Source: Candidatus Scatovivens sp.
GTDB taxonomy: Bacteria > Bacillota > Clostridia > TANB77 > CAG-508
Direction of reading: 5' to 3'
Assembly (NCBI GenBank): GCA_045646345.1
Contig: JAZRKN010000016.1
Coordinates: 1,693 to 65,692 of the forward strand
DNA length: 64,000 bases
The notes under the pieces were generated by a model that saw only the letters and a program-made list of their open reading frames with translations, was not told the origin of the DNA and searched no databases. Position 1 is the first letter of the stretch. Every line of letters starts with the position of its first letter. The position numbers and the translations under genes are program-made. Below, in pieces: positions 9,310 to 62,333 of this stretch.

Positions 9310-9314
9310 GTATA

Positions 9315-9352: not shown

Positions 9353-9370
9353 TTATAGTAAAATTTGGAC

Positions 9371-10030
9371 TTATTTTATTTTTCTAAATACACCAGATAC
9401 TTTTCCTAAAATTTCGCATGTTGGTACAATTATTGGATCTAAAGTGCAGTTTTCTGGTTGAAGTCTTATATGATCTTTTTCTTTATAGAATGTTTTTACT
9501 GTAGCCTCATCACCAATTAATGCTACAACAATTTCTCCATTACGAGCTGTATTTTGTTTTCTTACTAAAATATAATCTCCATCTAAAATACCAGCTTCGA
9601 TCATAGATTCCCCTCTAACTGTTAACATGAAACTTTCTCCTGTTCCAACAAAATCTAATGGAATTGGGAATGTATCTGTTACATTTTCAACAGCTAAAAT
9701 TGGTTCTCCAGCTGTAATTTTTCCGATTACTGGTACATCAACCATTTCTTTGCTTGAGTAAACTTCTTTATCAAAAACAGTTTCTTGTCCTTCTAAAGCA
9801 CCACCTTTTAATAATTTTAAAGTTCTACCTTTTTGACTTTCTTTTTTGATATATCCTTTTTGCTCTAAAGACGCAATATATCCATGAACTGTTGCTGTTG
9901 ATTTTAAATCTACTGCTTTTCCTATTTCTCTAACAGATGGTGGATAACCATTAAGATTTATTTGTTTTTCAATAAATTTTAATATTGCTTTTTCTCTTTT
10001 ATTTAAGCTATTTGGATCTTTTTTTCTCAT
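9371..10030 (-). CDS. lexA: LexA repressor
   Basis: N-terminal winged HTH and C-terminal S24 peptidase domain (GESMIEAGI...VALIGDEATVKTF). Start is probably M8 of the track ORF; an alternative start is at 10051. Confidence 0.9.
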   Translation of the reverse strand: MRKKDPNSLNKREKAILKFIEKQINLNGYPPSVREIGKAVDLKSTATVHGYIASLEQKGYIKKESQKGRTLKLLKGGALEGQETVFDKEVYSSKEMVDVPVIGKITAGEPILAVENVTDTFPIPLDFVGTGESFMLTVRGESMIEAGILDGDYILVRKQNTARNGEIVVALIGDEATVKTFYKEKDHIRLQPENCTLDPIIVPTCEILGKVSGVFRKIK

Positions 10031-37271: not shown

Positions 37272-39833
37272 CTATCTTATTTCATTTTTTCTTTCTTCAT
37301 AGTCTGTTTTTATATCTTCAACCAAAGTATCGATTGCCAAACTATATTCTGAATCCACCTTCACTTTTTTAGCAAATTCTGGACTTAGTTTTTTCATTTC
37401 GTATACAACATTTTTTCCCCATCCTGCTGATGCATTTCTTACTTTAACGTGTTCTGTCTCTCTTAACCCTTGCTTTGTTGCATCTGATTCTATTACTTTA
37501 GTTTCTAAATTTCCATTTCTAGCCATTTTATTTAAAAAGAACAAACCTTGTTGAAGTGACATTATATATGTTGCATTGCCTGGTTTATCATTTTTCATAA
37601 ATACCATTAATTCTAATTCTTTTGATGGATAAATTCTATAACCATCAAGAGAGTTATTAGTTCCTTTAAGTACTGGTTTTCTAGCATCAAATCCAATTTG
37701 TTCTAACAGCAACTCTTGAAGATCTGGATCTATTTTTAATTTTGATTCTCTTCTTGTTCCAGCTATTCGTAATCCTTTTGTTGTACTCTCACCTTCTGGT
37801 GTTTCTTCTGTTAATATTATAATTCCATTATCACTGTTAAAAATAGATTCATAAGCTTCATTTGTTGCAATATTTTCAGCAAACTCTTTCGCATTTTCTT
37901 CAGTTATTATATTTCTTTGAACTAAAGTACTTAATTCATCTTGAGAAATATAATAATTTTTAAACAAATCTTCTACTTTATCTAATGAAATTTCATCCGT
38001 AATAAAATCAGCTAATTCAATTTCAATTTCATAATTTTGAACTATTTTTAAAAACTCATCAATATCAATCCCATCTTGATTTGAATATAATACCATTAAT
38101 TCAGATGGTCCAATTTTTCCGCTTAGTAATTCTTTTCTTATTACATCTGCTCTATTTTCTGTTAAATTTAAAACTTCATAACTTAACGTTCCATTTTTAT
38201 AATGTTGTATAATTTCATCGCTTGTAAAAATTTCCTTTACAGCTTCTAATGATATTAATTTGTTTTTAAATAAATTTAATATTTCTTCTTCAGAAATTGC
38301 TTCTTCAATATATAAATCTTCTATAACATCTGTTGCTACTTCATAATTTAATCCGCTAAAATCAATTTCTTTTTTACTTAATAATACTAAAACAATTTCC
38401 TTTTCTTGAGATGTAATAGATTCTTTATATACATTTAAATATTCATCTTTCTGTTCTTTTGATAAGTCATTATTTAAAAATTTATTAAAATCTTCAACAA
38501 ATCTTTTATTAATTTTTCCATCATTTAATAATTTTTCTAAAACTTCTGGTGTATAGGTTCTTTGTATCAACTCTATCATCTTTTCATATTCTTCTGGTTC
38601 TTGATACTTTAAAGATTTAAATTTTGTTAGTTTCAATACATCTTCAACATTAATCGCACCATTATTTATAAATAATTCAATATCTTCAATTTTTAATGTG
38701 CCAAACATATTTATATAATCATTTGATTCTAATGAGTTTTTATATTTTATTTGGTCTGACATTACAATTTTCATAAACTGTTCTCTATTTAATGATGTTA
38801 AGAAGTCTGTTCTCAACACTCTTTCTGTTCCATGTTGTGTTTGAATAAAATCTAAAAATTCAATTCCTTTTGGAAATGCGCCATATCTTAGTAAGGCTTC
38901 TAAATCATCTGGTGTTAAATTTTTTAATTCTTCTTTTTTTAATCTTTTTAATACTGTTTTAGCCTCAATTTTTTCTTCTTTTAAATATTGAACAATCTCT
39001 TCTATACTCGCAAATTTAGCAAAGAATCTTTTATCTTTTTCAGCATAATAATTTAAAATCGCATTTCTTGATTCAAAAGAACCAGTTAAATAACAAGCAT
39101 TTTCAAATTCTTCGTTTGTTAGTACATTTAATTCTCTAAAAACTTCATCAAGTGTCATAAAATCCAAACTAGTTATTATTCCACCTTCAACTAACTGGCT
39201 ATAATCTACAACTCCAGCTTTTAACATTTTGCTTATAAAATCATTTCTAAAATATTCTTTTTCTTCTCTATTATTTAAAGTAACTTTTCCATCATTAAAT
39301 TTTCTTGTTTCTCTAGAAATTGTTGAAAGTGATTTTTCAAAAAATATACTAATACCTTGTCTTATTAATCTTCTCTCTTCATCGCTTCCATTTTTTATTT
39401 TTTCACTTAAAACATTATTTAATCTATTTATTAAGTGATCTATTTTATCCGATTCTAGATATGCTGCATGAACTGATTCTATTTTTATTAATATTGTCTC
39501 TACATCATAAGAAGTAAATCCATATTTTAATGCTTTTTCAAACTTTTCTACTTCTTGATATACAGTCATTTCTATTGCTTTTATATCTCTTTCAGTAATT
39601 TCAACAATTCCTGTTTGGGTAAATGCATATTTTTTATTTTTCTTTAAATCTAATACTGTTGTTTTATTTCTTATAGCTTCTGCAATTAAGTATGCATCAC
39701 TAACAGAATGTCTGTCTACTGTTATTGGTTTTACTTGTAATTTTTGCTCTAAATTTTCAATTATTCTTTCTGGTGCTTTTTCACCAGTTCCATGTTTTAC
39801 TTCCAATACGTTTTTTGAGTTACTTTTTGACAT
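37272..39833 (-). CDS. large hypothetical protein (853 aa), Glu/Lys-rich helical repeats, unknown function
   Basis: no NTPase or nuclease motifs recognised. Confidence 0.45.
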   Translation of the reverse strand: MSKSNSKNVLEVKHGTGEKAPERIIENLEQKLQVKPITVDRHSVSDAYLIAEAIRNKTTVLDLKKNKKYAFTQTGIVEITERDIKAIEMTVYQEVEKFEKALKYGFTSYDVETILIKIESVHAAYLESDKIDHLINRLNNVLSEKIKNGSDEERRLIRQGISIFFEKSLSTISRETRKFNDGKVTLNNREEKEYFRNDFISKMLKAGVVDYSQLVEGGIITSLDFMTLDEVFRELNVLTNEEFENACYLTGSFESRNAILNYYAEKDKRFFAKFASIEEIVQYLKEEKIEAKTVLKRLKKEELKNLTPDDLEALLRYGAFPKGIEFLDFIQTQHGTERVLRTDFLTSLNREQFMKIVMSDQIKYKNSLESNDYINMFGTLKIEDIELFINNGAINVEDVLKLTKFKSLKYQEPEEYEKMIELIQRTYTPEVLEKLLNDGKINKRFVEDFNKFLNNDLSKEQKDEYLNVYKESITSQEKEIVLVLLSKKEIDFSGLNYEVATDVIEDLYIEEAISEEEILNLFKNKLISLEAVKEIFTSDEIIQHYKNGTLSYEVLNLTENRADVIRKELLSGKIGPSELMVLYSNQDGIDIDEFLKIVQNYEIEIELADFITDEISLDKVEDLFKNYYISQDELSTLVQRNIITEENAKEFAENIATNEAYESIFNSDNGIIILTEETPEGESTTKGLRIAGTRRESKLKIDPDLQELLLEQIGFDARKPVLKGTNNSLDGYRIYPSKELELMVFMKNDKPGNATYIMSLQQGLFFLNKMARNGNLETKVIESDATKQGLRETEHVKVRNASAGWGKNVVYEMKKLSPEFAKKVKVDSEYSLAIDTLVEDIKTDYEERKNEIR

Positions 39834-48591: not shown

Positions 48592-49335
48592 TTATTTTTC
48601 TACATTTCTAAATCTTTGAAGGAAATCCTTAGTTTCTTCTTTTTGTGGATTTACAAAAATATCTTCTGAAGTTCCTTCTTCAAGTATTATACCATTATGC
48701 ATAAACACAACATGATTTGATATCTCTTTTGCAAAAGCCATTTCATGAGTAACTATAATCATTGTAAACCCTTCTTTTGCTAAAGTTTTTATAACTGATA
48801 GTACTTCTCCAACCATTTGTGGATCTAATGCCGATGTTGGTTCATCAAATAGTAGCACTTCTGGCTGCATTGCTAATGCTCTTGCTATTGCAACTCTTTG
48901 TTTTTGACCTCCGGATAATTGTTTTGGCTTAGCATTTATAAAAGGTGTCATTCCTACTTTTTCTAAGAAAAATAAAGCTTTTTCTTTTGCTTCATTTTTA
49001 CTTATTTTTAACACTTTTTCTAACCCAATCATACAATTTTGAAGAACATTCATATTCTCAAAAAGATTAAAATTTTGAAATACCATACCTACTTTTGTTC
49101 TGTAATTTGGAATATCTTTTGAGTCTAAAATATTTTCTCCATTAAAAAGAATCTCTCCTCCACTTGGAGTTTCCAATAAATTAATACATCTTAAAAGAGT
49201 AGATTTACCTGATCCTGATGCTCCAATTATTGAAGTTATATCACCTTTTTTTACTGAAAAATCTATATCTTTTAAAACTTCGTGGCTGCCAAAATTTTTA
49301 ATTAAATGTTTAATTTCAATAATTTTCTCACTCAT
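48592..49335 (-). CDS. polar amino acid ABC transporter ATP-binding protein (GlnQ/TcyC-like)
   Basis: Walker [10 protein letters not shown], signature [14 protein letters not shown], Walker [12 protein letters not shown]. Confidence 0.95.
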
Positions 49336-49336
49336 T

Positions 49337-50131
49337 TTATTCTACCTCCTTTTTTGAAGGATATTTTAAAAGTCCACTAGTATAAGCTAATGTATCAGTT
49401 GTTGAAAGAGAATAATCTTCTGGACCATTTAATTTATTTTCAACTATTCTTAATAATTTTGAACAAGTTACGGTCATAAATAAATACATTATCATTGTAA
49501 CTGTATATGCTTCAAAATATGTATAATAAGTTCCTGCTACAGACTTTGTAGCAAAAAATAATTCTACTGTTCCAATTACAGAAAGTACACAAGTATCTTT
49601 TATATTAATTATTAAGTTATTTCCTATTTGAGGCATTATATTTCTTGTTGCTTGAGGAAGTATTATATAAAGCATTGTTTGGAAATGATTCATACCAATT
49701 GCTTTTGCACCTTCTGTTTGTCCATCAGATATTGATAGTATTCCTCCCCTTACAGTTTCAGCCATATATGCTCCTGTATTTATTGAAACTATAAAAAATG
49801 CAGCAAACCACATACTCATATTAATTTCAAAAACAACAGCAGAACCATAATATATAAACATTGCTTGAACCATCATTGGAGTTCCTCTAAAAACCTCCAC
49901 ATAAATATCCATTATTGCTTTTAATGTTTTTAAAAATATTTTCTTAAATAAATTATCTCTTTTGGAAACCGGTATTGTTTGTATAATTCCAACAACAAAT
50001 CCAATTAAACAACCTATAATTGTACCAACTAATGCAATTAATAATGTTGTCCCAGCACCTTTTAAAAGAGAAGTTCCATATTTTTGAATAATAAATATAA
50101 TTCTTCCTAAAAAGTCTTGTGGTAAACTCAT
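49337..50131 (-). CDS. polar amino acid ABC transporter permease
   Basis: HisM/GlnP-type permease with EAA-like loop. Confidence 0.9.
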
Positions 50132-50150
50132 TTTTTATTCTTCCTTTCTT

Positions 50151-51014
50151 TTATTCAGATAATGGTTGAACACTAATTGCAGTATTCATCATTTCTTCAA
50201 AATCTGTTGTATCAAGTTCAGCTAATGCTGTATTTAATTCGTTTAATAATTCTGTATTTCCTTTTTTCACTGAAATACCAATATTTATTTCTTCTTCTGA
50301 AACATTAAAATTATCATTTTCAGAATTTGTAAAATCTAATAATTTAAAATCTGGATAAACTTTTGTTGCAGCCATTGCTGTTGGCATATCTGTTACAACT
50401 AAATCTGTTTTTCCTGAATCTAATGCTACTAACATTTGTGACGCAACTTCCATTGCTGGTAAAATATTTGCATTTTTAATTTGAGGTAAGCACACATCAT
50501 ACCAAACTGTATTTATTTGTGAAGTACATGTAGCACCTTCTAAATCACTAACTCCAGTTGCATCTGCATATTCACTATCATTTTTTGTTAATCCTACGAT
50601 TGAAGCATAATAATATGGTGTAGTAAAATCAACTGTTTGTAATCTTTCTGAAGTAATTGATTGACCAGCTATAACACAATCAATTTTGTTTGATTGAAGC
50701 GCTACTGGTAAACTATCCCAATCAATTTGATAAATTTCTAATTCATATCCTAATTTTTCTGCTAAAAATTTTGCTACCATTACATCATATCCATAAGCAT
50801 ATTCTGAACTTCCTGCTATTGGAACAGCTCCGTTTGATGTATCTGATTGTGCCCAGTTATATGGTGCATATGCACACTCCATACCAACTCTTAATACTTT
50901 TGTTTCTTCACCTTCATTTGTGTCTACTGTTTGGTTTTGGCATCCTGTAAGAGTTACTAATCCAATAACCAATAAAATTAAAGTAATACTTAAGTTTCTT
51001 AAAATGTTTCTCAT
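50151..51014 (-). CDS. amino acid ABC transporter substrate-binding lipoprotein
   Basis: lipobox LTGCQ; SBP_bac_3-like. Probable start MRNILRNLS at 51014 with RBS GGAGGG. Confidence 0.85.
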   Translation of the reverse strand: MRNILRNLSITLILLVIGLVTLTGCQNQTVDTNEGEETKVLRVGMECAYAPYNWAQSDTSNGAVPIAGSSEYAYGYDVMVAKFLAEKLGYELEIYQIDWDSLPVALQSNKIDCVIAGQSITSERLQTVDFTTPYYYASIVGLTKNDSEYADATGVSDLEGATCTSQINTVWYDVCLPQIKNANILPAMEVASQMLVALDSGKTDLVVTDMPTAMAATKVYPDFKLLDFTNSENDNFNVSEEEINIGISVKKGNTELLNELNTALAELDTTDFEEMMNTAISVQPLSE

Positions 51015-51400
51015 AATAAAACCCTCCACTAAATTTATTTTTAAATATCTGTTAATGATTAGTGGAATTTTATGTTTGTAAAACAAAAAATTCGTGAATG
51101 ACTACTTACATAGAACATTCACGAACACAATAATTTACATATCAAAATAAAGATATATTAAATATATCATTCGATTCTAGATAGCGCTCCACATAAGTGA
51201 CAGTTCGTTACATATTTTGCAACGTCCCAGCAATATTTATTTAGACGATAAATATAACTTCGGCAACATTTCCTTTCAAGCAAATATAGGAGTCTATTCC
51301 ACTTAATTTACTTTACTCTTAAACATCGCGACCTCTACCAATAGTCATTGGGGTTACCAATAACAGATTATTTAATTGTTTTTAAGTTTAGCATAGATTT
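51015..51400 (-). ncRNA. candidate structured cis-regulatory leader (riboswitch or attenuator) of the amino-acid ABC operon
   Basis: Roughly 330-nt 5' UTR, noticeably GC-enriched for this genome. Promoter TTGACA-17-TAAACT near 51380-51410. Terminates in a hairpin ttcgtgaatg-N15-cattcacgaa (51091-51125) followed by a U-run just before the RBS. Confidence 0.45.
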
Positions 51401-51512: not shown

Positions 51513-52274
51513 TTGGAGAATGCGAAAATGTCATTATTAGGAATCGTTCGGGATCAACATCTATTACTGCTCTTTGCAGTACAATTTGTAACCTCATTTT
51601 GCTTTATCTACTATGGGAAAAATAAACTCAGCTTTATTTCAGAAATCTTACTAATAATAAGCTGTGTTTTATACCATAAAACACCATTTAACTTGGACAT
51701 ACTACATTGCTATATTGCTGAATATATTTTACTGAAACTTTCTCTTGTTTTGATTGTATATATCGCAAAACGCTTTGCTTTTTTCATTTTGGTAGTAATA
51801 ACCCATAAAGAAAAATACAAAAAAGCGTATAAATTTCTTGTAAAAAAGAAACGTTTTTTGCGATTCCAATCACGCATATGGAATAAAGTAAAATACGGCA
51901 TTAGAATCAAAAAGGGTATTCCATCGATGGTAAACAAAAGAAATGCTCAGCACGGAATTTCTTTTGATAGTGATGGTTTCCCAAAGTTCAAAGTCATCAC
52001 TGAGGTTTACATAGATTCGTGTTATTGGAAAAAAAGCCGAGATGTACATTTTTATCAAGCAAATCGGCAATTATATACTCGAATCAAAAAATACTCTAAA
52101 CTTTCCAAAAAATTTACCAAAAACGAAATCAAAGAATTCAAGCAAGGAAATACTCCTAAAAAATATACTTGGCATCATCACCAAGATAAAGGATTGTTAC
52201 AGCTTGTCGATTCTGAAATTCATGCAAAAGTTCGTCATAATGGTGGATTTTCGATTTGGGGCCCAAGAGAATAA
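51513..52274 (+). CDS. ORF ending in a WHH-type HNH/EndoVII nuclease toxin domain; N-terminal part probably degenerate (orphan toxin module)
   Basis: C-terminus KKYTWHHHQDKGLLQLVDSEIHAKVRHNGGFSIWG matches the WHH nuclease signature (W-HH ... H ... H-GG). N-terminal 130 aa is low-complexity hydrophobic and may not be translated. Alternative start MVNKRNAQHG at 51927. Confidence 0.55.
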   Translation: MENAKMSLLGIVRDQHLLLLFAVQFVTSFCFIYYGKNKLSFISEILLIISCVLYHKTPFNLDILHCYIAEYILLKLSLVLIVYIAKRFAFFILVVITHKEKYKKAYKFLVKKKRFLRFQSRIWNKVKYGIRIKKGIPSMVNKRNAQHGISFDSDGFPKFKVITEVYIDSCYWKKSRDVHFYQANRQLYTRIKKYSKLSKKFTKNEIKEFKQGNTPKKYTWHHHQDKGLLQLVDSEIHAKVRHNGGFSIWGPRE

Positions 52275-52358: not shown

Positions 52359-53333
52359 TTATCTCTTAATCATTATTCCGCTTCCACTTGATTTAATAGT
52401 AGTCTCATCAAAATCTTCAATCAACCACATCGCTTTGCTAATTTCAATCTGCTCTTCATTAAGATTGAAACTTCTGCAATATGCCGTTGCGATTTCCTGA
52501 ATCAAGAAATGAAAAACTTCAGGCGCCTGCATATACAGTTCATTGCTTTGAATCATGCAAATTAGATATGCGTTAAGCTGATATGCAATACTGGTTTCAG
52601 CAGGAACTTTTGCCTTAGGATAGATTGCATCTTTCAGTACTTCATTGATATGATCTTCCAGAAGGAAATCTTCATCCATAATGCTTCTGGTCACCAGTTC
52701 AGGGTTTGCAAAAATCATCTGCTGACCAATCATCGCAGCATAGAGATATGCACTATTATTACAAGGATATCCCATCCAGCTTACCAATCTCAGATTTACA
52801 GCTTCTGTAATGGTTTCATAAAGTCCCCAATACATATCAGTATCGTATTCAATACCAAGCATATGAACTACTTCATGACACCAAGTAAAAGGAAAATATT
52901 CAGGCAGATTTTCATAGAGATTTTTGTTTACATAGACAACATTACTTCCAGGCTTATGATAGCCCATCAGCACATTGTCAGAAACACCAATGAGTTTCGT
53001 CTCTACAGAATTGATTTTTTCGGTAACATCAATTCCATATTCGATCTGGAAATATTCAATTACCTTTTCCTTTAATCCTCTAATGTACTCTTTATCAGGA
53101 TTGCAGATTTCGACATTAGACGAATCGATCAAAGAATTAATGTACTCTTTTTCATCCCAAATCATATTTTCTTCAGGAATATCTACAGAGTCACTCTCTT
53201 CCATAAAGAAGAATTCTGCCAGTGTAATTTCCTTATTGGTAGGATCATAGAGATTATCCCTTTTTACTCCACATCCCACCAAAGTGGTCATGAGCATAAC
53301 TACAACCAAAATCATAGCAAAAATTTTTTTCAT
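52359..53333 (-). CDS. lipoprotein with HExxH zinc-metallopeptidase motif
   Basis: lipobox LVGCG; HEVVHMLG; about 40% GC. Confidence 0.55.
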   Translation of the reverse strand: MKKIFAMILVVVMLMTTLVGCGVKRDNLYDPTNKEITLAEFFFMEESDSVDIPEENMIWDEKEYINSLIDSSNVEICNPDKEYIRGLKEKVIEYFQIEYGIDVTEKINSVETKLIGVSDNVLMGYHKPGSNVVYVNKNLYENLPEYFPFTWCHEVVHMLGIEYDTDMYWGLYETITEAVNLRLVSWMGYPCNNSAYLYAAMIGQQMIFANPELVTRSIMDEDFLLEDHINEVLKDAIYPKAKVPAETSIAYQLNAYLICMIQSNELYMQAPEVFHFLIQEIATAYCRSFNLNEEQIEISKAMWLIEDFDETTIKSSGSGIMIKR

Positions 53334-53589
53334 CGTTTTACCTCACTTCATTTAGATATCTCACAAAACATAACTTACGATAAATTATTATTTTTGCTTA
53401 TCAACCTCACTTAGATATAATAAAGACAATAACATATTAGTTTTTTGGTTTCGTTTATCATTCCTTTCTTTATTTACACTTATTCGCTTTATATACAGCG
53501 GTGGAAGCCGCTTATTTTAAATGTGCTCGTCTGCTTATTATAACACCTTTTCGAAGTTATGTCAACTTAGTGCTTTCAAAAAAATTATC

Positions 53590-53630
53590 GCTATTGAATT
53601 TTACTTCAACAGCGATTTTTATTAATTATA
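53590..53630 (-). terminator. intrinsic terminator after the surface-protein gene
   Basis: stem atcgct...agcgat with U-run on the minus strand. Confidence 0.6.
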
Positions 53631-53633
53631 ATT

Positions 53634-56006
53634 TTAATATCTATGTTTAAAATTATATATTTTTTTGTTTTTCTTTTTTCCTAATATAATTACACTAATC
53701 AATACAATTACACATCCAATTATTATAACTGTATTATTACCAGAACCACCAGCTTCCGGCAACTGTATCATCGGTTTATTAGGAACATTTAATATAATTT
53801 CAGGTTCAGAAGATACCATTTCTACTTCATAAATTTCTTCACTTAACTTATAACCATCTGGCGCTTTTATTTCTCTTACTCTATATGTTCCATTATTTAT
53901 ATAACTAACTATAGCCATTCCATCTGAATCTGTAGTATAATCTCCAACAGGAAGAACCGTATCTTCATATATTTGATCTACCGAAAAAACAGCTCCTTCT
54001 AGCGGTTCATTTGTAAAGTAATCATATTTATTGATAATTAAAAGAGTTTGTCTCATGTTAGCAATTGTTGCAATACCATATTCATTGTCATTTACACAGC
54101 TACTCACAAAATATCCATCTGGAATATCAAATTCTGATACTGAATATATTATTTCTTCACCATTTTCATCAAACCTTGGTAAATTCTCAAATTTGTAATA
54201 CCAAACGCCATCATCTGTCACTGTTTCTACATCAAGAGCCATTGTTCCATAAGGATTCGGTGTAATTGCATTATCATCTTTCATTTCTACAACTTCAACT
54301 TCATCATCTTTATTAGATGATAATCTTATATTTATTGACTCTGGTCTTTTAAAATTTTCCGATTCCTCTTCAGAAAGAGCCATTGTTGGAACATCATCTA
54401 CCCATACTTTATAAACTTCATAATCAGTTACTGTTTTTATATATGTGTAGACTACTTCTTGAGTTTCTGGTGTAAATATTCCTGAACAATTTTCTGGTAA
54501 TTCCATTATTTCATAATATAAATATTCACCTACTTCCGCATTATATTCTTCAAATAATTTTCCCTTTAGTTTAACTGGATCTTCTAATTCTTCTCCATAT
54601 TCATCTAAATGTCTTACTATTACATAAGAAACTAAATCTAAATTTGCTGAATTTGTAGTAATTGTATTATCATTTTCTGTTATTACTGCAGTATTTGAAA
54701 TTAAATTTGTCGTTGGATTATCTACAACTTTGGCGTCTATAACAAACTTATAATTCTGTCCTTCATAATTTATCAAATTCAAATAATTTAAATCAAATGT
54801 ATATTCCAAAATATTGTTATTTGTATTTACTGTACCTGCGATATCTGTTATATTATTTTCATTTTCATCATATACAATTAGATTTTTATAAATTAAATTT
54901 GTATTTAATTCATCCAAAAATTTTAGTTTTGATAACCTAAATGTCGTTTCATCTGAAGTTGGCATTTTATATGATATTGTATATTTTATATCTTCTCCAG
55001 CAGTAGCTTCAAATGTTGAAACTTCTTTTATAGCATCACCTTCATAATTCGAAGTTAACGGTAAAAAGTTCATATGGTAACCGTTTGATAAATTAGAATT
55101 TAATGAATGTAAATTTATATTTATATAATCTACATTTTTATACAAAAAAGATATCGCATATTCTTTTTCTAAGAGATTTGATGTGGAATTCATTCCAGCA
55201 TATAAATCATTGTATCTTTTTTCACCATGCGTAATATTTTCTATATAATTTATGTTTGAATTTTTATACAAATATACTTTTGATGAATTACTACTATTTA
55301 TAGCTTCTTTTGCTATTCCATTTTCACCACTTAATCCATATAAAGTGTAATATGCTGTTTCTAATATTATCTTATCAGTTCCATTAACATAAAAATACAC
55401 TTTCATATTAATATTTTCGAATCCTCTTTGATACCATTCATTATTCAAATTTTGATTTTCCACATAACCATAAGACGTCCACCATAATACTTTTGAATTA
55501 TTTAATTTTTTTTGATTTAAGTCATCTCCGGTATATTCACTTCCTGAGAAAAAATCGGAATAAACTATTTTGATATCTATATTGTTTCCATTCAATGTTC
55601 CACAATCTTTAAACAAAGCTTCAATTTCAATATCTACATTTTGATTATACGGTAAATCCATAAATGTAACACTTTTTATTGGTTGTTGCACTTCATCGTT
55701 TTCTATTAATGGTCTTCCTCTATTTACCCCATCTTCTCCATCAATCACATATTGATAATCAGTTTTTATTGTTAGTATTGGTAATTTTGAAAAATTTAAT
55801 TTTAAATTCTCTAATGTTGATTTCTCAAGCAAGGAATTATTATCAATACTTATAGAATTATTGGCTAGTTTTGAATCTAAGTCAATAATTTTATATATAT
55901 CATATTGTGTTTTACTGTAATTTAACAATATACATCCTAATATCGTACTCAAAATAAAACATATCACTATTAAATTAAACTTTAATTTAAATCTATTTTT
56001 TCTCAT
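53634..56006 (-). CDS. cell-wall-anchored surface protein with Cna-B/SpaA-type domain and LPxTG-like sorting signal (LPEAG)
   Basis: 790 aa; N-terminal signal/TM. C-terminal Cna-B pattern (GAVFSV...TTDSDGMAIVSYINNGTYRVREIKAPDGY). Sorting signal LPEAGGSGN followed by hydrophobic segment and KKKNKK tail. Confidence 0.7.
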   Translation of the reverse strand: MRKNRFKLKFNLIVICFILSTILGCILLNYSKTQYDIYKIIDLDSKLANNSISIDNNSLLEKSTLENLKLNFSKLPILTIKTDYQYVIDGEDGVNRGRPLIENDEVQQPIKSVTFMDLPYNQNVDIEIEALFKDCGTLNGNNIDIKIVYSDFFSGSEYTGDDLNQKKLNNSKVLWWTSYGYVENQNLNNEWYQRGFENINMKVYFYVNGTDKIILETAYYTLYGLSGENGIAKEAINSSNSSKVYLYKNSNINYIENITHGEKRYNDLYAGMNSTSNLLEKEYAISFLYKNVDYININLHSLNSNLSNGYHMNFLPLTSNYEGDAIKEVSTFEATAGEDIKYTISYKMPTSDETTFRLSKLKFLDELNTNLIYKNLIVYDENENNITDIAGTVNTNNNILEYTFDLNYLNLINYEGQNYKFVIDAKVVDNPTTNLISNTAVITENDNTITTNSANLDLVSYVIVRHLDEYGEELEDPVKLKGKLFEEYNAEVGEYLYYEIMELPENCSGIFTPETQEVVYTYIKTVTDYEVYKVWVDDVPTMALSEEESENFKRPESINIRLSSNKDDEVEVVEMKDDNAITPNPYGTMALDVETVTDDGVWYYKFENLPRFDENGEEIIYSVSEFDIPDGYFVSSCVNDNEYGIATIANMRQTLLIINKYDYFTNEPLEGAVFSVDQIYEDTVLPVGDYTTDSDGMAIVSYINNGTYRVREIKAPDGYKLSEEIYEVEMVSSEPEIILNVPNKPMIQLPEAGGSGNNTVIIIGCVIVLISVIILGKKKNKKIYNFKHRY

Positions 56007-56099
56007 TATTCACCAATCTATTTTATTCTTAGAGTCAGTATATCATATAATTTTTATTTTGAGGATTTTGTTACCAAAATGTATTAATTCTTACTTACA

Positions 56100-56128
56100 T
56101 TGAATTTTTAAGCATTTTATGTTATAAT
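56100..56128 (+). promoter_or_regulatory. near-consensus sigma-A promoter TTGAAT-17-TATAAT
   Basis: ttgaatttttaagcattttatgttataat upstream of the 56181 ORF. Confidence 0.6.
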
Positions 56129-56180
56129 AGAAATGCAGTTTATATATTTTTTGCATCAAAGCCAATTGGGAGGTGTTAAT

Positions 56181-56786
56181 ATGGCATACAACAGTCTTGA
56201 TTTACGAAAAAAACTGTCTATTGAGGAGTACTATCGGTTCTCTCAACGGTTAGCATATGAATATGCTACCACTTCAGCATCAACTGCTGTTACCGCGCTT
56301 ACTGAAAAATATGATGTTACAAAAAGCGCATTTTACACATTGCTGGAATTTGCTATAACTCATCATTTGGTTTCTGATAAAGTTGTCCAATCGATTCGAG
56401 AAAAGCTTGTTTCCAATCTTGCAGCTCATGGTTGCAAAGGTTACAAAAGCAATGTGAAATACAATCAGTTAACAGCAAAAAGAGACAATTTTTCCGCATT
56501 CCAAAAAAAGGATATTGAGTATATTGCAAAATATTACGCTATGCATCCTGAGGAATCCAAGCAGGAAGTCACAGCTCGTTTTCATTTCTATAGTCCCAAA
56601 GTATTGAATCGACTTTTGAAACGGGCTTGTATGGAATTAATCATCACAGACAAAATTTTCAATATGCTTCGTCAAAGAGCAATCGATAATGCAGTAGATC
56701 TTGATTACACAATCAATTTCTTTTGCGAGCTTGCTCGTTATCGCGACAAAGCAAAACAAATCAAGAAAAGCCAATCTGCATTCTAA
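56181..56786 (+). CDS. hypothetical protein (201 aa) in a higher-GC cassette
   Basis: start MAYNSLDLRKK with RBS gggaggtg; about 40% GC; followed by a bidirectional terminator at 56805-56845. Confidence 0.5.
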   Translation: MAYNSLDLRKKLSIEEYYRFSQRLAYEYATTSASTAVTALTEKYDVTKSAFYTLLEFAITHHLVSDKVVQSIREKLVSNLAAHGCKGYKSNVKYNQLTAKRDNFSAFQKKDIEYIAKYYAMHPEESKQEVTARFHFYSPKVLNRLLKRACMELIITDKIFNMLRQRAIDNAVDLDYTINFFCELARYRDKAKQIKKSQSAF

Positions 56787-56804
56787 CGCAGACAGAACTG
56801 TAAA

Positions 56805-56845
56805 AAAGAACTACATCCAAAAATGTAGTTCTTTCTTTTTTATTT
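56805..56845. terminator. bidirectional intrinsic terminator
   Basis: stem aagaactacat/atgtagttctt with flanking A/T runs. Confidence 0.75.
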
Positions 56846-56849
56846 TTAA

Positions 56850-57107
56850 TTAATTAAGAAATAATGAATCTCTTACCAGCAATTCAAATGTGTCTAACCA
56901 AAGCTTATGCTCTCCCATTTTCTTTTTATAAATTAAATGTAATACTTCATTAGCATAATTAAATGTATCTTTACTCATTTCAGTTTTTATTATATCTCTC
57001 ATTTCAAATATAAAAGAATCTCTTCTAAGATATGGTATATCAATAGGATTATCAATATTTAGCAATTCTGATAGCTCTTGTAAACTTTTTTGTATTCTCT
57101 CTTCCAT
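56850..57107 (-). CDS. small protein (85 aa) tightly coupled downstream of the 918-aa gene; possible immunity/partner protein
   Basis: 11-nt gap to upstream gene on the same strand; no motif recognised. Confidence 0.4.
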   Translation of the reverse strand: MEERIQKSLQELSELLNIDNPIDIPYLRRDSFIFEMRDIIKTEMSKDTFNYANEVLHLIYKKKMGEHKLWLDTFELLVRDSLFLN

Positions 57108-57118
57108 AACAATTCCTC

Positions 57119-59875
57119 CTATAACTCAATTTCATCAGTATTTTGTGCATTAGTTTTTTTACTTTTTGCAGTTTTTCTTTTTGTATCTCTTACAACTTCA
57201 GATAATTGTCTTGCAGCTTCTCTTGCAGAGTATTTCTTGTCCAAAGCTTTTCGCAAAGAAAATTTTAAAACTGAATTCGAAACAATTGGTTCAAAGCCAT
57301 TTTGGGGCCTTGCAACACCTGATACTTTTCTTATAACTTCTCTTGGATCCATATATGTTTTTTCTACTCCAAGACTTAATATATCTCTTGTTGACTCTTG
57401 TCGAACTCCAGTTGAAACAAATAGAGTATCTGCTTTTAATCCTTCTTCATTTTTTTCAGATACATCGATCTCATAATTAATTTTAATAGCTTGTTTTCTA
57501 GTTATAGCTTCAGCTTTATCATATACAGAAAATTCTGAAATTTTTGTTATCCTATCTCTTTTTTCTTCCAAGTCACCTTTACCTGTAGCTTCAACTTCAT
57601 GTTTTGAAACTCTAGTAGAAGGAATTATCATTTCACTAATAACTTCGCTTTTTTGTGGATCCGGCAATTCTAAACCATTATCTTCAATTAATTGTCTAAA
57701 TTGCTCATTATCAAGTAATTTCTTTATTACTTGAGTTCTCATTGATTGTTCATACACTCTCTCTGATATATTGTTCTTCTTAGCAATTAATTCTTTATCA
57801 TAATCATATATAGTCAATATAGATTCAATTGGCATATTATTTATATAATATTCCTGTAAAAAATATAACTCATGCTCATTTAATCCAAATGTTTCTTCTG
57901 GATTTTCTTGCATTATTTTTTCTATACAACTTCCCACTTCAACTGGATTTTTCGCTATATCTTTTAAAAACTTTTCTTGTCTTTTCGTTCTTCTGTCTTC
58001 TGTTAATAATAAAGCATCATATAATATTGGATCTATTTCTACTATCGCCTCTTTAGGAATTATTCCTTTAAATAAAACCTCTCTTGAAGCAGGTGCATAT
58101 TTTCTCACTCTTTCATGTTTTTTCTCTTTGCCAGATTTATCAATCTTTGAAGATATTAATGATGAGCCTGCATCACGTAAAATTCCTTCTTGATAACTAA
58201 TCTTTCCACCTTGTGAAAAATCAATTATTCCTTCAGGAAGTTTTTCTCTACCAACATATATTAAATTTTCTTCATTTTCAATAATAGATAATCTTTCTGT
58301 GATTTTATTTTTTTGTTCTTCAGATAGTTTAGCTCTTTCTAATAATTGTTTTAAAAATTCTTTTTCTCCAGTCAAAGCCATTTTTTCATCATTTATAATA
58401 CCCAAACGTTGTCCCATTAATTCATAAACTTTATCTATGTTTATCAAAAATACCGATGCTCTTTGATTTTTATAAGCATTCCCAGAAGGAAATTCACTTA
58501 AATATGTTGCTGATATAGCAAATATCTTACTTGTTGAAATAAATGAAGTTTGCATTCCTGGTTTTGAGCCTTGTTCTATATGTGTTTGAGGTGAAATTCT
58601 AGAATCCAAATCCGCAGCTATAATTTCATTTCCATATTTAGAATCTTGCGCTCTGAATAACATTTCTGGGAAATCATACTTTTGTTTTATACTTTCACTC
58701 CATTCTAGTTTTCTTTGTTCTATATATTCATTTTCAGTTACACTTACATATTCACTTATCAAATCTCCCAAAACATCTTTTTTTACCAAAGATGGCATTT
58801 CATCCAATATACCTGCGATATAATTAGTTCCGTTATTCATTTTTTTAAAAAAGGGTTCATTTGGAAATCTAACATGTGTTATATACTTTTCTATGTCATT
58901 TTCGCTTTTTCCTTCTTTTCTTAATTGTACAATATCTTCAAAAATAGTTTTTAAAACAATTTCTGCACACCTTTCCCATTCTCGAGTAATTTTTTGTTTT
59001 GGATATTTTTTTCGATTTTGTTCTTTTAATTTATTTACATACACCTTATAGTTAATAGATTTTGAAATAAACTCTTCTGCTGAAACACCTTCATTTTCTT
59101 TTTCTTCTAACAGTTTTAAGAAAATTTTCAAATTATAATATCCAGCATCTACATCTCTTTTTTTTGAAGTTCCATATCTAGACATTCTTACTTGATCAGT
59201 CAATTTACTTACTTCTTCTTCTATTAACTTTTCTAACTCTTCTTCTTTTATCTTACTATGTTGTTCTACTTGTAAAGACAAACAATCTCTCTCATATTCT
59301 CTTGTATAAAACGCTGCTATAAGTTCTGAATACGAACTCATCATTTCAGGATTTTCAGTTAATATTTCAGTCAATTCCTTAGGTGATATTCCTAATGAAT
59401 TTTTTAAATATTCAGATTCTCTTTCCATAATTGGCTTTACACTTTTTCTCTCTTCTACAGAATATTGATCGTGCAAAATCAACATATCTTTCATTCTTGC
59501 ATCTTTACGAAATAAGTTCAAAATTGTATCAAAATCTTCTATTGTGACATCAGCTTTATTTATTAACTCATTAATTAACTTTTTTAAATCTTGATCTCTT
59601 ACAGGTTCTTTTCCTTCAAAAATTTCGCAAAAATCATCGATTACTAAATCCATTTCAGTTTCAAATACTAATCGATCATTCTTTTTTCCTCCCAAAAGTA
59701 TTGCATCTTCTACAAAAACAAAATCTTCCTTATAATCATAATCTCCAATTATTCTCTCATAAGATTTTAATTTTTCTTTGTATTCTGGTTTTCTTTCTAA
59801 TAAAACTCTTATTAATTTATTTTTTATTGCTATTTGATCTGAATAACTCAAATTATCAAATAATTCCCTTACCAT
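57119..59875 (-). CDS. large hypothetical cytoplasmic protein (918 aa)
   Basis: no TM. Central region has FR...(38 aa)...FISTS...(about 57 aa)...GEKEF, which loosely matches the R-S-E spacing of ADP-ribosyltransferases (speculative). Confidence 0.45.
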   Translation of the reverse strand: MVRELFDNLSYSDQIAIKNKLIRVLLERKPEYKEKLKSYERIIGDYDYKEDFVFVEDAILLGGKKNDRLVFETEMDLVIDDFCEIFEGKEPVRDQDLKKLINELINKADVTIEDFDTILNLFRKDARMKDMLILHDQYSVEERKSVKPIMERESEYLKNSLGISPKELTEILTENPEMMSSYSELIAAFYTREYERDCLSLQVEQHSKIKEEELEKLIEEEVSKLTDQVRMSRYGTSKKRDVDAGYYNLKIFLKLLEEKENEGVSAEEFISKSINYKVYVNKLKEQNRKKYPKQKITREWERCAEIVLKTIFEDIVQLRKEGKSENDIEKYITHVRFPNEPFFKKMNNGTNYIAGILDEMPSLVKKDVLGDLISEYVSVTENEYIEQRKLEWSESIKQKYDFPEMLFRAQDSKYGNEIIAADLDSRISPQTHIEQGSKPGMQTSFISTSKIFAISATYLSEFPSGNAYKNQRASVFLINIDKVYELMGQRLGIINDEKMALTGEKEFLKQLLERAKLSEEQKNKITERLSIIENEENLIYVGREKLPEGIIDFSQGGKISYQEGILRDAGSSLISSKIDKSGKEKKHERVRKYAPASREVLFKGIIPKEAIVEIDPILYDALLLTEDRRTKRQEKFLKDIAKNPVEVGSCIEKIMQENPEETFGLNEHELYFLQEYYINNMPIESILTIYDYDKELIAKKNNISERVYEQSMRTQVIKKLLDNEQFRQLIEDNGLELPDPQKSEVISEMIIPSTRVSKHEVEATGKGDLEEKRDRITKISEFSVYDKAEAITRKQAIKINYEIDVSEKNEEGLKADTLFVSTGVRQESTRDILSLGVEKTYMDPREVIRKVSGVARPQNGFEPIVSNSVLKFSLRKALDKKYSAREAARQLSEVVRDTKRKTAKSKKTNAQNTDEIEL

Positions 59876-59995
59876 AATTTATACCTCTTTTTTTTAAATA
59901 TATTATTATATTACCACTATTTATGGTCCTAAAACATAACAATTACATTTCATTATGTTATCAAATCACTTATATTTCAACAAACAAGTTGTAAT

Positions 59996-60175
59996 TTATC
60001 TTTCATAAGAATCTTCTAATTTTTTTCTTCCTTCACGTGATATTTCTACTGTTACAGCTTGATTTACCGTTGTTTTTCCTTTTTTACTCTGTTTTGATTG
60101 ATTATTGTTTTTGTTTGGATTTTGATTCGAATTAAATGTCGTTTTGTAAACTGGATCAATTTTTTCTATTTTCAT
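59996..60175 (-). CDS. candidate small basic N/K/Q-rich protein (59 aa)
   Basis: GGAGG RBS 7 nt upstream; not in the supplied track (below its length cutoff). Confidence 0.3.
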   Translation of the reverse strand: MKIEKIDPVYKTTFNSNQNPNKNNNQSKQSKKGKTTVNQAVTVEISREGRKKLEDSYER

Positions 60176-60289
60176 ATAATTTCCTCCGTTTTTTCATTTA
60201 TTTAATTCTATCATAAAAGTAAAAAAAATATATAATTATTATATATTTTTTTACTTTTAGAAAATATTTTATTTTTTTTCAAAAAAGTG

Positions 60290-60318
60290 TTGACATCTTA
60301 AAATTTAAATTGTATAAT
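60290..60318 (+). promoter_or_regulatory. consensus sigma-A promoter (TGnTTGACA-17-TATAAT) for tRNA-Leu
   Basis: gtgttgaca tcttaaaatttaaattg tataat. Confidence 0.7.
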
Positions 60319-60356
60319 ATCACTTGTCAGTTGGAAAACTGATTGCCAGTAAAAAT

Positions 60357-60445
60357 GCAGATGTGGCGGAACTGGCAGACGCACAGGACTTAAAATCCTG
60401 CGGGACCTAAATCCCGTGCCGGTTCGATTCCGGCCATCTGCACCA
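60357..60445 (+). tRNA. tRNA-Leu (anticodon UAA) with encoded CCA
   Basis: acceptor stem gcagatg/catctgc, anticodon loop cTTAAaa, long variable arm, T-arm ccggTTCGATTccgg, terminal ACCA. Confidence 0.9.
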
Positions 60446-60478
60446 AATCTTGAGAGAAATCTCAAGATTTTTTTTATT
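60446..60478 (+). terminator. intrinsic terminator after tRNA-Leu
   Basis: stem atcttgaga/tctcaagat followed by a T8 run. Confidence 0.8.
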
Positions 60479-60873: not shown

Positions 60874-61131
60874 ATGAATAATAATGTAATTAATCAAACA
60901 AAAGATAAAAAATATACAAAAGCAGAATTGATAACAATTGATTCTATTAGAAGAGTAAAAAATCCATTTAGAATGATTACTGTTAAAGATGTTATGAAAG
61001 ACTTAAATATATGTGAGACTGTCGCATATAAAACATTTAAAAGACCAGATTTTCCATCCATAAATGTAGGCAAAAATAATCAAGTAATGTTATTGGCTTA
61101 TTTATTATGGAAAATGGAAAAAAGAGATTAG
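60874..61131 (+). CDS. xis: excisionase/AlpA-like small HTH DNA-binding protein
   Basis: 85 aa, basic, immediately upstream of and overlapping the integrase gene; HTH-like segment NICETVAYKTFKRPDFP. Confidence 0.55.
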   Translation: MNNNVINQTKDKKYTKAELITIDSIRRVKNPFRMITVKDVMKDLNICETVAYKTFKRPDFPSINVGKNNQVMLLAYLLWKMEKRD

Positions 61132-61142
61132 GAGGTGTTTAT

Positions 61143-62333
61143 ATGGCTGCTATACATACACAAGAAGGTACAGTTTATTATGAAAAAACAAGAAATCGTT
61201 GGAGATGTGATTATAAAATTTTAGATCCCGATACATCTAAATTTATAAGAAAAACAAAAACATTTCGTTCTGAACAAGATGCAAGAGATTTTTTTTCAAT
61301 GCTTCAATATCAAAAAGGTAATGATTTATATGTGAAAAATAATGGTATACCTTTAAATAAATTAATACGAAGTATTTTAGAAAGAAAATTAGAAACTGGA
61401 GTTATTGGTGAAAGAACATATGCTAGAACAATGGAAACAATTACAGCAATGGAAAAATGCGAGATACTTAAGAAAAATATTGATGATATATCTAGTGTGG
61501 AGCTACAAAGTTATTTAAATTCTTTAAGACATTATAGTCAAAATACTATAAAGAAATTTATGGATCAATTAAATCATGCATTTAAATATGCTCAAAATAA
61601 AGGGTATATAATAAAAAATCCTATGTTTGATATTATAAAACCTAAAAGTAATAAACAACCAAGAGAAGTTCGTGCATTAGAGATTGAAGAACAACAAAAA
61701 TTAACTGATTATTTACTATATGTTCCTATTAGTGAAGAACCATTTAAGAATGTATTTTTATTACAAATGTTTTTAGGACTTCGTATAGGAGAGGCATTAG
61801 CGTTGCAAGTAAGTGATATAAATTTATACAAGAATATAATTTGTATATCAAAAACTTTAACAACAGATAAAAATCGAAAAGTAATTATGGGAGATAAAAC
61901 AAAAACTTATGCTGGAAAAAGAGAAATACCTATACCAGATTTTTTATTAAATGAAATAAAAAATCAAATGAGATTAGCAGAAAATAATAAAGATAAATTA
62001 TTATTTGTTGATAAAGCTAATAATTATGTATTACCAAATAACGCAAATAGGAATTTACAAAAGATCGCTCAAAATTTGGGAATTGAAAATATATCAAGTC
62101 ATAGTTTAAGACATACTTATGGAACAAGATGTATTGAAGCTGGAATGAGAGCAGTTGCCCTTCAAAGACTTATGGGACATACTGATATAGCTGTTACATT
62201 AAACACTTATACTTCAATATTTAATAAATATAAAGAGCAAGAATTAGAAAAAGTAAATGAATATTATCTAAATAATGAAATTTTAATGAAAAGAAATTTG
62301 CTACAGGATGATACTGAAAATATTCGAAATTAA
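61143..62333 (+). CDS. int: tyrosine-type site-specific recombinase/integrase
   Basis: catalytic signature LRIGEALAL...HSLRHTYGTRCIEAG...LMGHTDIAVTLNTYTS (R...HxxR...Y). RBS aggagg before the ATG at 61143. Confidence 0.9.
   Translation: MAAIHTQEGTVYYEKTRNRWRCDYKILDPDTSKFIRKTKTFRSEQDARDFFSMLQYQKGNDLYVKNNGIPLNKLIRSILERKLETGVIGERTYARTMETITAMEKCEILKKNIDDISSVELQSYLNSLRHYSQNTIKKFMDQLNHAFKYAQNKGYIIKNPMFDIIKPKSNKQPREVRALEIEEQQKLTDYLLYVPISEEPFKNVFLLQMFLGLRIGEALALQVSDINLYKNIICISKTLTTDKNRKVIMGDKTKTYAGKREIPIPDFLLNEIKNQMRLAENNKDKLLFVDKANNYVLPNNANRNLQKIAQNLGIENISSHSLRHTYGTRCIEAGMRAVALQRLMGHTDIAVTLNTYTSIFNKYKEQELEKVNEYYLNNEILMKRNLLQDDTENIRN

Follow-up and report, generated by a model that had tools for sequence, protein, structure and literature searches.

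A coupled gene pair next to a tRNA-Leu gene

The locus studied here lies in a 64-kb stretch of contig JAZRKN010000016.1 from Candidatus Scatovivens sp. (the whole stretch is hereafter called the window), in which a gene for a 918-amino-acid (aa) protein is followed by a gene for an 85-aa protein (Table 1). The open reading frame (ORF) listing confirmed that both genes lie on the same (minus) strand with a spacer of 11 nt (57108–57118) between them, as a first-pass annotation made from the sequence alone had stated. The ribosome-binding site of the 85-aa gene (AGGAGG, 57115–57120) overlaps the TAG stop codon of the 918-aa gene, so that translational coupling of the pair fits. The larger protein had been described as soluble, and indeed no hydrophobic segment was found in it or in its small partner (maximum Kyte-Doolittle-19 values of 1.12 and 0.24, respectively), the latter having an isoelectric point (pI) of 5.1. 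The pair recurs in three near-identical metagenome contigs (L001, L002 and L097) and, in diverged form, in every related locus examined; therefore, it is not a chance arrangement of ORFs. Below we present evidence that the centre of the 918-aa protein is a putative ADP-ribosyltransferase (ART) domain, and we consider what such a protein and its partner may do.

A predicted ART domain in the 918-aa protein

Scanned as single sequences against Pfam, NCBIfam, PADLOC and PHROGs, the 918-aa and 85-aa proteins produced no match above threshold, the noise below it including PRODH and MOZART1. Relatives were also scarce. A word-indexed homologue search with the 918-aa protein found only three proteins, all at least 86% identical to it, and the same kind of search with the core profile gave no match. 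An exhaustive phmmer search of 1.84 billion representatives, by contrast, yielded 10 relatives with a common region at aa ~382–748. One of them, P0004, is a full-length relative with 34% identity, while eight match the central region (aa ~382–748) only, two of these eight being short proteins (390 and 400 aa) that start directly with this region. Family scans of GTDB genomes, JGI metagenomes and IMG/VR viral contigs found no member.

The alignment of the phmmer relatives showed that R408, H432, S447 and E599 are invariant and Y458 nearly so, and after the addition of six further members each of these catalytic columns was still kept in 14–15 of the 15 sequences. R408 (Arg in 14/15) belongs to an aromatic-Arg motif ([FY]R) on strand 1, here F407-R408. 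S447 (Ser in 15/15) lies in an aromatic-hydrophobic-S-T-S motif, here FISTS, which aligns with ISTT of RhsF-CT, and E599 (15/15, in ASREV) aligns with the Glu in QEV of the same protein, the residue two positions before it being S, A or D and not Q or E. RhsF-CT (PDB 9ZDM) is the C-terminal toxin, with an ART fold, of a Rhs protein from the type VI secretion system (T6SS) of Chromobacterium violaceum; it is toxic in E. coli, requires R1403, Y1456, E1497 and, in part, S1445, and is blocked when its immunity protein covers the catalytic pocket, its molecular target being unknown according to its authors (bioRxiv 10.64898/2025.12.06.692724). Our core profile matched 9zdm_B with E=1e-7 over the segments H..G..ISTT and QEVLI..IP. 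Two members of the family also scored above the gathering threshold (27 bits) of DUF7587 (PF24494), namely P0011 with 29.2 bits and L027 with 32.7 bits; the 918-aa protein is linked to DUF7587 transitively, through phmmer and the family alignment, and its own match covers the C-terminal end of the model, around E599. The core has the ART fold expected of ARTC enzymes, with a split beta-sheet forming the NAD-binding core. Taken at the sequence level, the core at aa ~396–625 is a cholera/pertussis-like toxin domain (ARTC, R-S-E type) of the DUF7587/RhsF-CT family.

The ART fold is split by a helical insert of ~108 aa (aa 483–590), which is short in the 390–400-aa homologues and in RhsF-CT. As a result, the spacing from Y to E is 141 residues in the 918-aa protein, 59 in P0011 and 41 in RhsF-CT, while that from S to Y is 11 in both the 918-aa protein and RhsF-CT and that from R to S is 39 versus 42. 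The first-pass annotation had suspected an ART in the central segment from three motifs, FR, FISTS and GEKEF, and had called for a profile and structure comparison as a check; this comparison came out ART-like, and the suspicion was borne out by the match to 9zdm_B and the conserved catalytic columns of an R-S-E, cholera/pertussis-like enzyme. Its remark that the protein has no recognisable catalytic motif holds for scans of the single sequence, but the family profile does reveal one. All three motifs are present (aa 407–408, 445–449 and 503–507), with gaps of 36 and 53 aa in place of the noted 38 and ~57 aa. FR, with R408, and FISTS, with S447, are two genuine, conserved catalytic motifs, and to this extent the proposed R (FR)–S (FISTS)–E (GEKEF) triad was well founded. 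GEKEF, however, sits in the lineage-specific insert, which the short homologues and RhsF-CT have only in shortened form or not at all, and is not a conserved column, whereas E599 is invariant and aligned with QEV of RhsF-CT. We thus regard a catalytic role for GEKEF as highly improbable and take E599 as the predicted catalytic Glu.

The ART gene is linked to a small partner and, in relatives, to a NADAR gene

The loci of the relatives came from two sources: contigs encoding the phmmer matches, which are ascertained through the ART, and loci reached by a metagenome scan with the NADAR proteins of the cassettes (220 relatives, 80 loci kept). In the long-form cassette, a coiled-coil protein of 50–55 aa and another of 68–145 aa are followed by an ART of 763–927 aa, a small acidic protein of 85–103 aa and a NADAR protein of ~208 aa, the last of which belongs to PF22397, 'DarT1-associated NADAR antitoxin' (E=1e-64 to 1e-67). 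The short form (L005) consists of ART, small protein and NADAR. The NADAR gene follows the ART and the small gene in all five informative ART-ascertained loci (L003, L005, L008, L011 and L014); L004 and L006/7 were not counted as informative, their contigs ending before the NADAR position. An HMM (hidden Markov model) search revealed six more lineages with a family ART beside a NADAR, in variable order (L018, L019/23, L027, L036/39, L044 and L091), but these were ascertained through the NADAR and so give no independent evidence for the ART–NADAR linkage.

A small acidic ORF stands directly after the ART in all ART-ascertained loci and in most of the six NADAR-ascertained lineages, so that the expected co-occurrence of the large and the small gene across genomes was indeed found. 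Homologues of the 85-aa protein were detected directly downstream of the ART in L003 (46% identity, 5e-28), L004 (2e-5) and L008 (2e-3). Across groups, the small partners have position, size and acidity (pI 4.3–5.7) alone in common, and a single superfamily for all of them was rejected (hhalign not significant, P=0.03–0.09).

NADAR proteins, which act as the antitoxin to DarT1, remove ADP-ribose from guanine by hydrolysis (PMC11543638). An unrelated ART, YarT, has a NADAR of the YbiA type as its antidote (PMC11125620), and NADARs also reverse the modification of guanine and cytosine by the ARTC enzymes ScARP and Scabin (PMC12945103). In our literature search, no paper was found on a DUF7587/RhsF-type ART linked to a NADAR, nor any that mentions DUF7587, a family without described function.

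For most of the cassette-type NADARs sampled from metagenomes, there is no family ART within 6 kb. In thirteen gut-metagenome loci, a DarT1-type NADAR stands behind a 94-aa acidic protein as an orphan pair, again with no family ART within 6 kb (among them L035, L046, L061, L066, L070, L071, L073 and L075; in L071 the genes lie at 5692–5976 and 6001–6639), and this 94-aa protein shows no detectable homology to the 85-aa partner in the window. Three further NADARs, of the DarT1 type, form the C-terminal part of ORFs of ~730–757 aa with putative starts, fused to a WYL domain with a weak LRR match (L042 2823–5096, L051 2335–4533 and L078 4366–6639); these may be ligand-sensing NADAR proteins.

Long-form ARTs are always preceded by the two coiled-coil genes, here called up1 (50–55 aa) and up2 (68–145 aa, motif ELxITLxIYxLEExYL), located at 9490–9985 in L003, 3593–4042 in L004, 1405–2015 in L008, 9602–10014 in L011 and 9609–9988 in L014; neither had a family match. 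The cassettes sit between housekeeping genes, for example tsf/pyrH, ftsH/serS and gatB, and those of L008 and L014 occupy the same position (gatB, cassette, DUF362). We also considered whether the module in the window shares this chromosomal position by way of an amino-acid ABC transporter, but identities of 32–53% are too low for orthology and the idea was dropped. The P0004 gene in L003 is flanked (442–9455 and 13926–14114) by genes for HD, lipase (Mbeg1-like) and LRR_5 proteins, a 736-aa HATPase_c_3 protein, a ResIII fragment and two unknown proteins of 395 and 111 aa; these surroundings may be a defence or variable island.

Regions flanking the ART domain and selection between alleles

The N-terminal region (aa 1–395) is common only to the long-form relatives, and the full-length AlphaFold model, with a predicted local distance difference test score (pLDDT) of 57, is too weak to assign the N- and C-terminal regions. 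Behind the ART domain, all family members have a helical domain (aa 626–735) with invariant E669, F672 and Y677. Its model gave weak fold matches to sigma region 4 and other helix-turn-helix (HTH) proteins, while sequence searches gave none; the domain is possibly HTH-like.

Selection was assessed by the ratio of non-synonymous to synonymous substitution rates (dN/dS) between the window and L001 and L002. The 918-aa gene had an overall dN/dS of 1.1–1.3, with 1.2 for aa 1–395 and ~2.4 for aa 736–918, the fastest part. In contrast, no non-synonymous change separates the alleles within aa 591–625 (dN/dS of 0), and aa 626–735 gave 0.2; the values for the 85-aa gene and the 201-aa gene next to it were 0–0.2 and 0–0.13, respectively. 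The ratio of non-synonymous to synonymous changes in the 918-aa gene differs from that of its neighbours (dN/dS ~0.1; Fisher P=8e-4). Among 162 substitutions in the 918-aa gene, no stop codon was seen against 7.9 expected (P=3e-4), and allele lengths differ by multiples of three only; therefore, the gene is not in neutral decay. As far as such allele comparisons indicate, the pattern fits diversifying selection on the flanks while the catalytic and helical core is under purifying selection, a combination typical of conflict genes. The fast-diversifying regions at the two ends of the protein are candidates for sensor or specificity modules. An apparent fusion of the 918-aa and 85-aa proteins, P0017, was considered as 'Rosetta-stone' evidence of their interaction and rejected, as it stems from a disrupted allele or an assembly error (2-nt frameshift, 68-nt deletion).

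The module is a discrete accessory island

To place the pair in its surroundings, the window was compared by blastn with L098, a sister lineage whose 201-aa neighbour is 66% identical to that of the window. Window positions 56115–56834 correspond to L098 4803–5526 (75% identity) and 60262–60446 to L098 5621–5807 (97%), and only ~95 nt separate the 201-aa gene from the tRNA-Leu region in L098, which lacks the block of 59-aa, 918-aa and 85-aa genes. This indel is bordered by the terminator behind the 201-aa gene on one side and by the promoter region of tRNA-Leu on the other, and no flanking repeats were found around it. The 59-aa/918-aa/85-aa module is thus a discrete 3.4-kb accessory island. 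At its right edge, just upstream of the 59-aa gene, there is a perfect AT-rich palindrome with arms of 14–15 nt (60214–60259).

Table 1 Features of the ART module and its neighbours, in window coordinates.
Feature	Position	Strand	Basis or remark
WHH/Colicin-DNase protein	51513–52274	+	Library match
LPXTG adhesin, 790 aa	53634–56006	−	SpaA, Cna_B, MucBP and AgI/II C2 domains
201/217-aa all-helical protein	56133–56786	+	Convergent to the 85-aa gene, at the position of the relatives' NADAR
Hairpin terminator common to the convergent 85-aa and 201-aa genes	56805–56834	both	Conserved in L098
Indel of ~3.4 kb with the 59-aa, 918-aa and 85-aa genes	56835–60261	−	blastn against sister lineage L098
85-aa partner gene, acidic, helical	56850–57107	−	ORF listing; candidate inhibitor (antitoxin/immunity) of the ART
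Translational-coupling junction: stop codon of the 918-aa gene, AGGAGG of the 85-aa gene, spacer	57108–57121	−	Sequence read
Gene for the 918-aa predicted multidomain ADP-ribosyltransferase	57119–59875	−	ORF listing, homology, family alignment
C-terminal region, aa 736–918, basic (pI 9.0), poorly modelled	57122–57670	−	dN/dS ~2.4
Conserved helical domain, aa 626–735 (GLNEHELYFLQEYYIN ... MRTQVIKKLL)	57671–58000	−	In all family members
ART domain, second half, aa 591–625	58001–58105	−	E599 (58079–58081) in ASREV; conserved IP (P607)
Helical insert splitting the ART fold, aa 483–590 (~108 aa)	58106–58429	−	Alignment; helices at aa 480–533 in models
GEKEF	58355–58369	−	Within the helical insert
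ART domain, first half, aa 396–482	58430–58690	−	Conserved columns; HMM match to 9zdm_B
Y458 codon	58502–58504	−	ART first half
S447 codon (FISTS)	58535–58537	−	ART first half
H432 codon	58580–58582	−	ART first half
R408 codon	58652–58654	−	ART first half
N-terminal helical region, aa 1–395	58691–59875	−	Alignment; aa 1–230 helical in model, pLDDT 60–86
Promoter-like site between the 59-aa and 918-aa genes, TTGAAA-17-CATAAT	59952–59980	−	Consensus match only, which is not evidence of function
59-aa peptide gene, basic (pI 9.9), low-complexity	59996–60175	−	ORF; travels with the 918-aa/85-aa pair
tRNA-Leu(taa)	60357–60445	+	
Tyrosine integrase	61107–62333	+	

The 59-aa gene is kept in L002 and lies inside the indel; its product is unrelated to the up1 proteins of other cassettes and had no family match in the library scans (Pfam, NCBIfam and PHROGs); a FlgM-like reading of it was dropped for want of a match. 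No homologues of up1 or up2 were found in the 64-kb window (tblastn, HMM). On the other side, the operon stops at the hairpin terminator, which leaves no space for a NADAR gene after the 85-aa gene. The 201/217-aa protein encoded at this position had no family match in library scans, and since its homologues (55–81% identity) occur in lineages without the ART pair, it is not part of the module.

The WHH protein, the LPXTG adhesin, the 59-aa basic peptide, the tRNA-Leu gene and the integrase gene are all located as the first-pass annotation had described. Its further suggestion that the 51–64-kb stretch may be one variable locus stood only in part. Against L098 the stretch falls into five pieces (the WHH/324-aa/201-aa block, the adhesin indel, the ART-module indel, tRNA-Leu and the integrase element), of which two indels and the integrase element are variable, while others are conserved: the WHH gene and a gene for a 324-aa lipoprotein are kept with 76% nucleotide identity. 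The adhesin stretch (53567–56114) is absent from L098, where the 201-aa gene adjoins the gene for the 324-aa lipoprotein (L098 4719–4803), and this is a second, independent indel. The integrase element lies on the 3' side of the tRNA-Leu gene and is likewise absent from L098; the pair is outside it. It carries a gene for a small HTH-like protein (weak DUF1836 match) together with the tyrosine integrase gene (60874–62333, +). The window has no second copy of the tRNA 3' end, so the element continues beyond it.

Other features of the window were noted in passing. The WHH protein has a hydrophobic N-terminal half, and its gene is always paired with the convergent 324-aa lipoprotein gene (52359–53333, −), whose product has an HEVVH (HExxH) motif and a weak phage-metalloprotease match; the two are kept at 71–76% identity in L098 and are also present in L001. 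A lysine riboswitch (Rfam RF00168, 107 bits; 51174–51345, −) immediately upstream of the operon for a polar amino-acid ABC transporter (48592–51086, −) probably forms with it a lysine-regulated uptake system. An 853-aa ORF at 37272–39833 (−) had no Pfam match at E<=0.01.

Proposed function and alternative explanations

The explanation towards which we lean is that the pair is a nucleic-acid-modifying ART toxin–antidote or defence-like module with the 85-aa protein as its inhibitor. We infer that the 918-aa protein would be a cytoplasmic multidomain ADP-ribosyltransferase acting through a predicted active site of R408, H432, S447, Y458 and E599, and that the acidic, co-translated 85-aa protein would be its obligate partner, a stoichiometric inhibitor that holds the ART off in a manner resembling RhsFi, which occludes the electropositive pocket of RhsF-CT. 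By guilt by association, the most likely substrate of the family would be a base in DNA or RNA, namely guanine or possibly cytosine, because a NADAR, that is, a guanine-ADP-ribose hydrolase, follows the ART pair in related Clostridia. The whole cassette would then act like DarT1–NADAR as a toxin–antidote or abortive-defence module, with the NADAR reversing the mark in most relatives, and the window lineage would have a reduced form in which the NADAR was lost or never acquired and the 85-aa protein is the sole linked antidote.

Several observations weigh against this explanation. On the side of the enzyme, the 918-aa protein itself falls below the DUF7587 threshold (13.8 bits for the whole protein and 17.0 for the core), because the ~108-aa insert breaks the match; the core model has a moderate pLDDT of 69, and all its Foldseek E-values exceed 0.1; the equivalence of R408 with R1403 of RhsF was drawn from spacing, HMMER not having aligned the two; and the closest folds (EcPltA, pertussis toxin and heat-labile enterotoxin) modify proteins and not nucleic acids. 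Neither the module nor the rest of the 64-kb window contains a NADAR (no HMM matches; best tblastn E=0.35), so the nucleic-acid argument is one by family and not by locus. The homology of the 85-aa protein to the small partners of short-form and orphan loci was not significant in the hhalign comparison mentioned above. As to a defence role, PADLOC-DB 2.0 gave no match for the 918-aa, 85-aa or 217-aa proteins, and the IMG/VR scan found no family member on viral contigs. Finally, the L097 allele (ENA ERZ28633818 scaffold_7495) is disrupted: a 2-nt deletion splits the 918-aa gene after aa 709, and the rest is joined in frame with the 85-aa gene by a 68-nt deletion (window equivalents ~57757 and ~57083–57150); this represents either a true knockout or faulty assembly.

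Alternatively, the 918-aa protein could be an exported interbacterial effector like the polymorphic toxins, with the 85-aa protein, and the NADAR in relatives, protecting the producer; the 13 metagenome loci with a small acidic ORF and a NADAR but no ART nearby would then be orphan immunity sets. The homology of the catalytic domain to a T6SS-delivered Rhs toxin, the diversification of the large protein while its partner is conserved, and the neighbouring toxin-type WHH/Colicin-DNase protein and surface adhesin are all in favour of such an effector, as are the two small helical proteins upstream in the long-form cassettes, a layout that we take to be like that of LXG/Lap operons. A small gene immediately downstream, here a candidate immunity gene, fits effector–immunity pairs in position and co-occurrence. 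We nevertheless consider export unlikely: the protein has no signal peptide or hydrophobic segment and no LXG, WXG100, Rhs, PT-TG or other trafficking domain (Pfam, NCBIfam), its toxin domain is central (aa 396–625 of 918) and not C-terminal, with a conserved helical domain after it, and members of 390–481 aa begin with the ART at residues 1–10, like intracellular toxins of toxin–antitoxin pairs. Moreover, none of the large ORFs in the window is a secretion-system gene, and the cassettes sit between housekeeping genes.

This last point would suit, in place of a conflict system, an endogenous regulatory writer whose reversible ADP-ribosylation of a cellular nucleic acid or protein, erased by the NADAR in relatives, would control growth, replication or transcription. 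Complete cassettes in core-gene neighbourhoods, at the same position in L008 and L014, a layout of writer plus eraser, and a conserved helical, possibly DNA-binding, domain fused to the ART speak for it. But a regulator is hard to reconcile with the extreme rarity of the family (10 among 1.84 billion representatives, none in the GTDB, JGI and IMG/VR scans), its presence and absence between sister lineages, a dN/dS above 1 with one allele disrupted, and the loss of the eraser in the window lineage while the writer was kept, and we judge it improbable. Equally doubtful is the idea that the loss of the NADAR and the two upstream genes has left the 918-aa gene as a neutrally drifting relic, inactive or dispensable. 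The overall dN/dS of ~1.1–1.3, the absence of NADAR, up1 and up2 and the frameshift and deletion in L097 are what a relic might show, whereas the catalytic residues are all intact in three alleles, the deficit of stop codons and the in-frame length differences run counter to drift, and both the second half of the ART with the helical domain and the coupled partner gave a dN/dS of only 0–0.2.

A wider version of the toxin–antidote explanation, which we put forward tentatively and with less confidence, is that these cassettes are an undescribed immune or toxin–antidote system of several genes in gut Clostridia, in which a giant ARTC enzyme homologous to the RhsF toxin would ADP-ribosylate a G or C base in DNA or RNA, its fast-diversifying flanks would sense triggers, the small acidic protein would restrain it and, in most lineages, the NADAR would erase the mark. 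If this is true, the NADAR-less version in the window would show that the small protein suffices as an antidote on its own, and the target of the RhsF-CT/DUF7587 toxin family is predicted to be a nucleic-acid base.

Comparison with known systems

The window module had no protein-model match to the known anti-phage defence systems of PADLOC-DB 2.0. Polymorphic toxins (those of LXG type VII secretion, Rhs and contact-dependent inhibition systems) combine an N-terminal trafficking domain with a C-terminal toxin domain, and the 918-aa protein lacks this architecture. With pertussis toxin S1, EcPltA and heat-labile enterotoxin A it has the motif order R ... H ... S-T-S ... E in common. Its spacings of 24 residues from R to H and 15 from H to S resemble those of pertussis toxin S1, whose residues we take to be R9, H35, S52 and E129. 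However, those proteins are secreted AB5 toxins acting on host G proteins, while the 918-aa protein has no B subunit, signal peptide or disulfide loop, and its family has S, A or D in place of the Q or E of the Q/E-x-E motif of the cholera/pertussis group.

Among ARTs paired with NADARs, DarT1 is similar in gene order: DarTG1 is a toxin-first operon, and behind the ARTs of the relatives stands a NADAR from the DarT1-associated clade. An adjacent NADAR of this kind is present in L003, L005, L008, L011 and L014 and missing from the window module. The 918-aa ART differs from DarT1 in that it has no DarT/DUF4433 match (Pfam, PADLOC) and is of the ARTC R-S-E type instead of the ARTD H-Y-E type; in addition, a small protein stands between ART and NADAR, and long-form ARTs are ~4 times larger than DarT1. 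YarT is an ART of the H-Y-E/HYD1 clade paired with a YbiA-type NADAR. ScARP, considered here together with Scabin and the NADAR SCO5665, is a secreted protein that occurs only in actinomycetes and has no operon linkage to its NADAR. Both YarT–YbiA and ScARP/Scabin are without the small partner, helical domain and large extensions of the 918-aa family.

RhsF-CT with RhsFi has a homologous ART toxin domain with the layout R...S-(11 aa)-Y...E and a small gene directly downstream. RhsF-CT comprises the C-terminal 121 aa of a T6SS Rhs protein from a Gram-negative bacterium, whereas the domain of the 918-aa protein is internal, split by the ~108-aa insert, fused to further conserved domains and encoded in a low-GC, Clostridia-type genome. 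The Rhs/YD-repeat shell, the PxxxxDPxGL cleavage motif and the T6SS delivery domain of RhsF-type proteins are absent from the 918-aa protein, as are Rhs, FIX, PAAR and VgrG domains (Pfam, NCBIfam), and its N-terminal region is helical. The 85-aa partner is likened to RhsFi by position and proposed role alone, and not by sequence similarity.

Overall, the catalytic superfamily, the recently solved toxin clade and the theme of 'partner swapping' between ARTs and NADARs are already known, while, as far as the literature found goes, the giant ART with a split core and a helical domain, its obligatory small partner, its pairing with a DarT1-type NADAR and the two coiled-coil genes appear undescribed. 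The comparison provides a function hypothesis for DUF7587 and for 'hypothetical' giant proteins in metagenome-assembled genomes of gut and rumen Clostridia, and the consistent linkage of homologues to NADAR makes it testable that the RhsF-CT clade modifies nucleic-acid bases. The fast-evolving, NADAR-less allele in the window is a natural experiment on which antidote is essential. Compared with published work, which we found to link the DarT1-type NADAR clade only with DarT1, the cassettes would add a third, ARTC-type partner and introduce a small protein between writer and eraser that also accompanies the NADAR where no ART is present.

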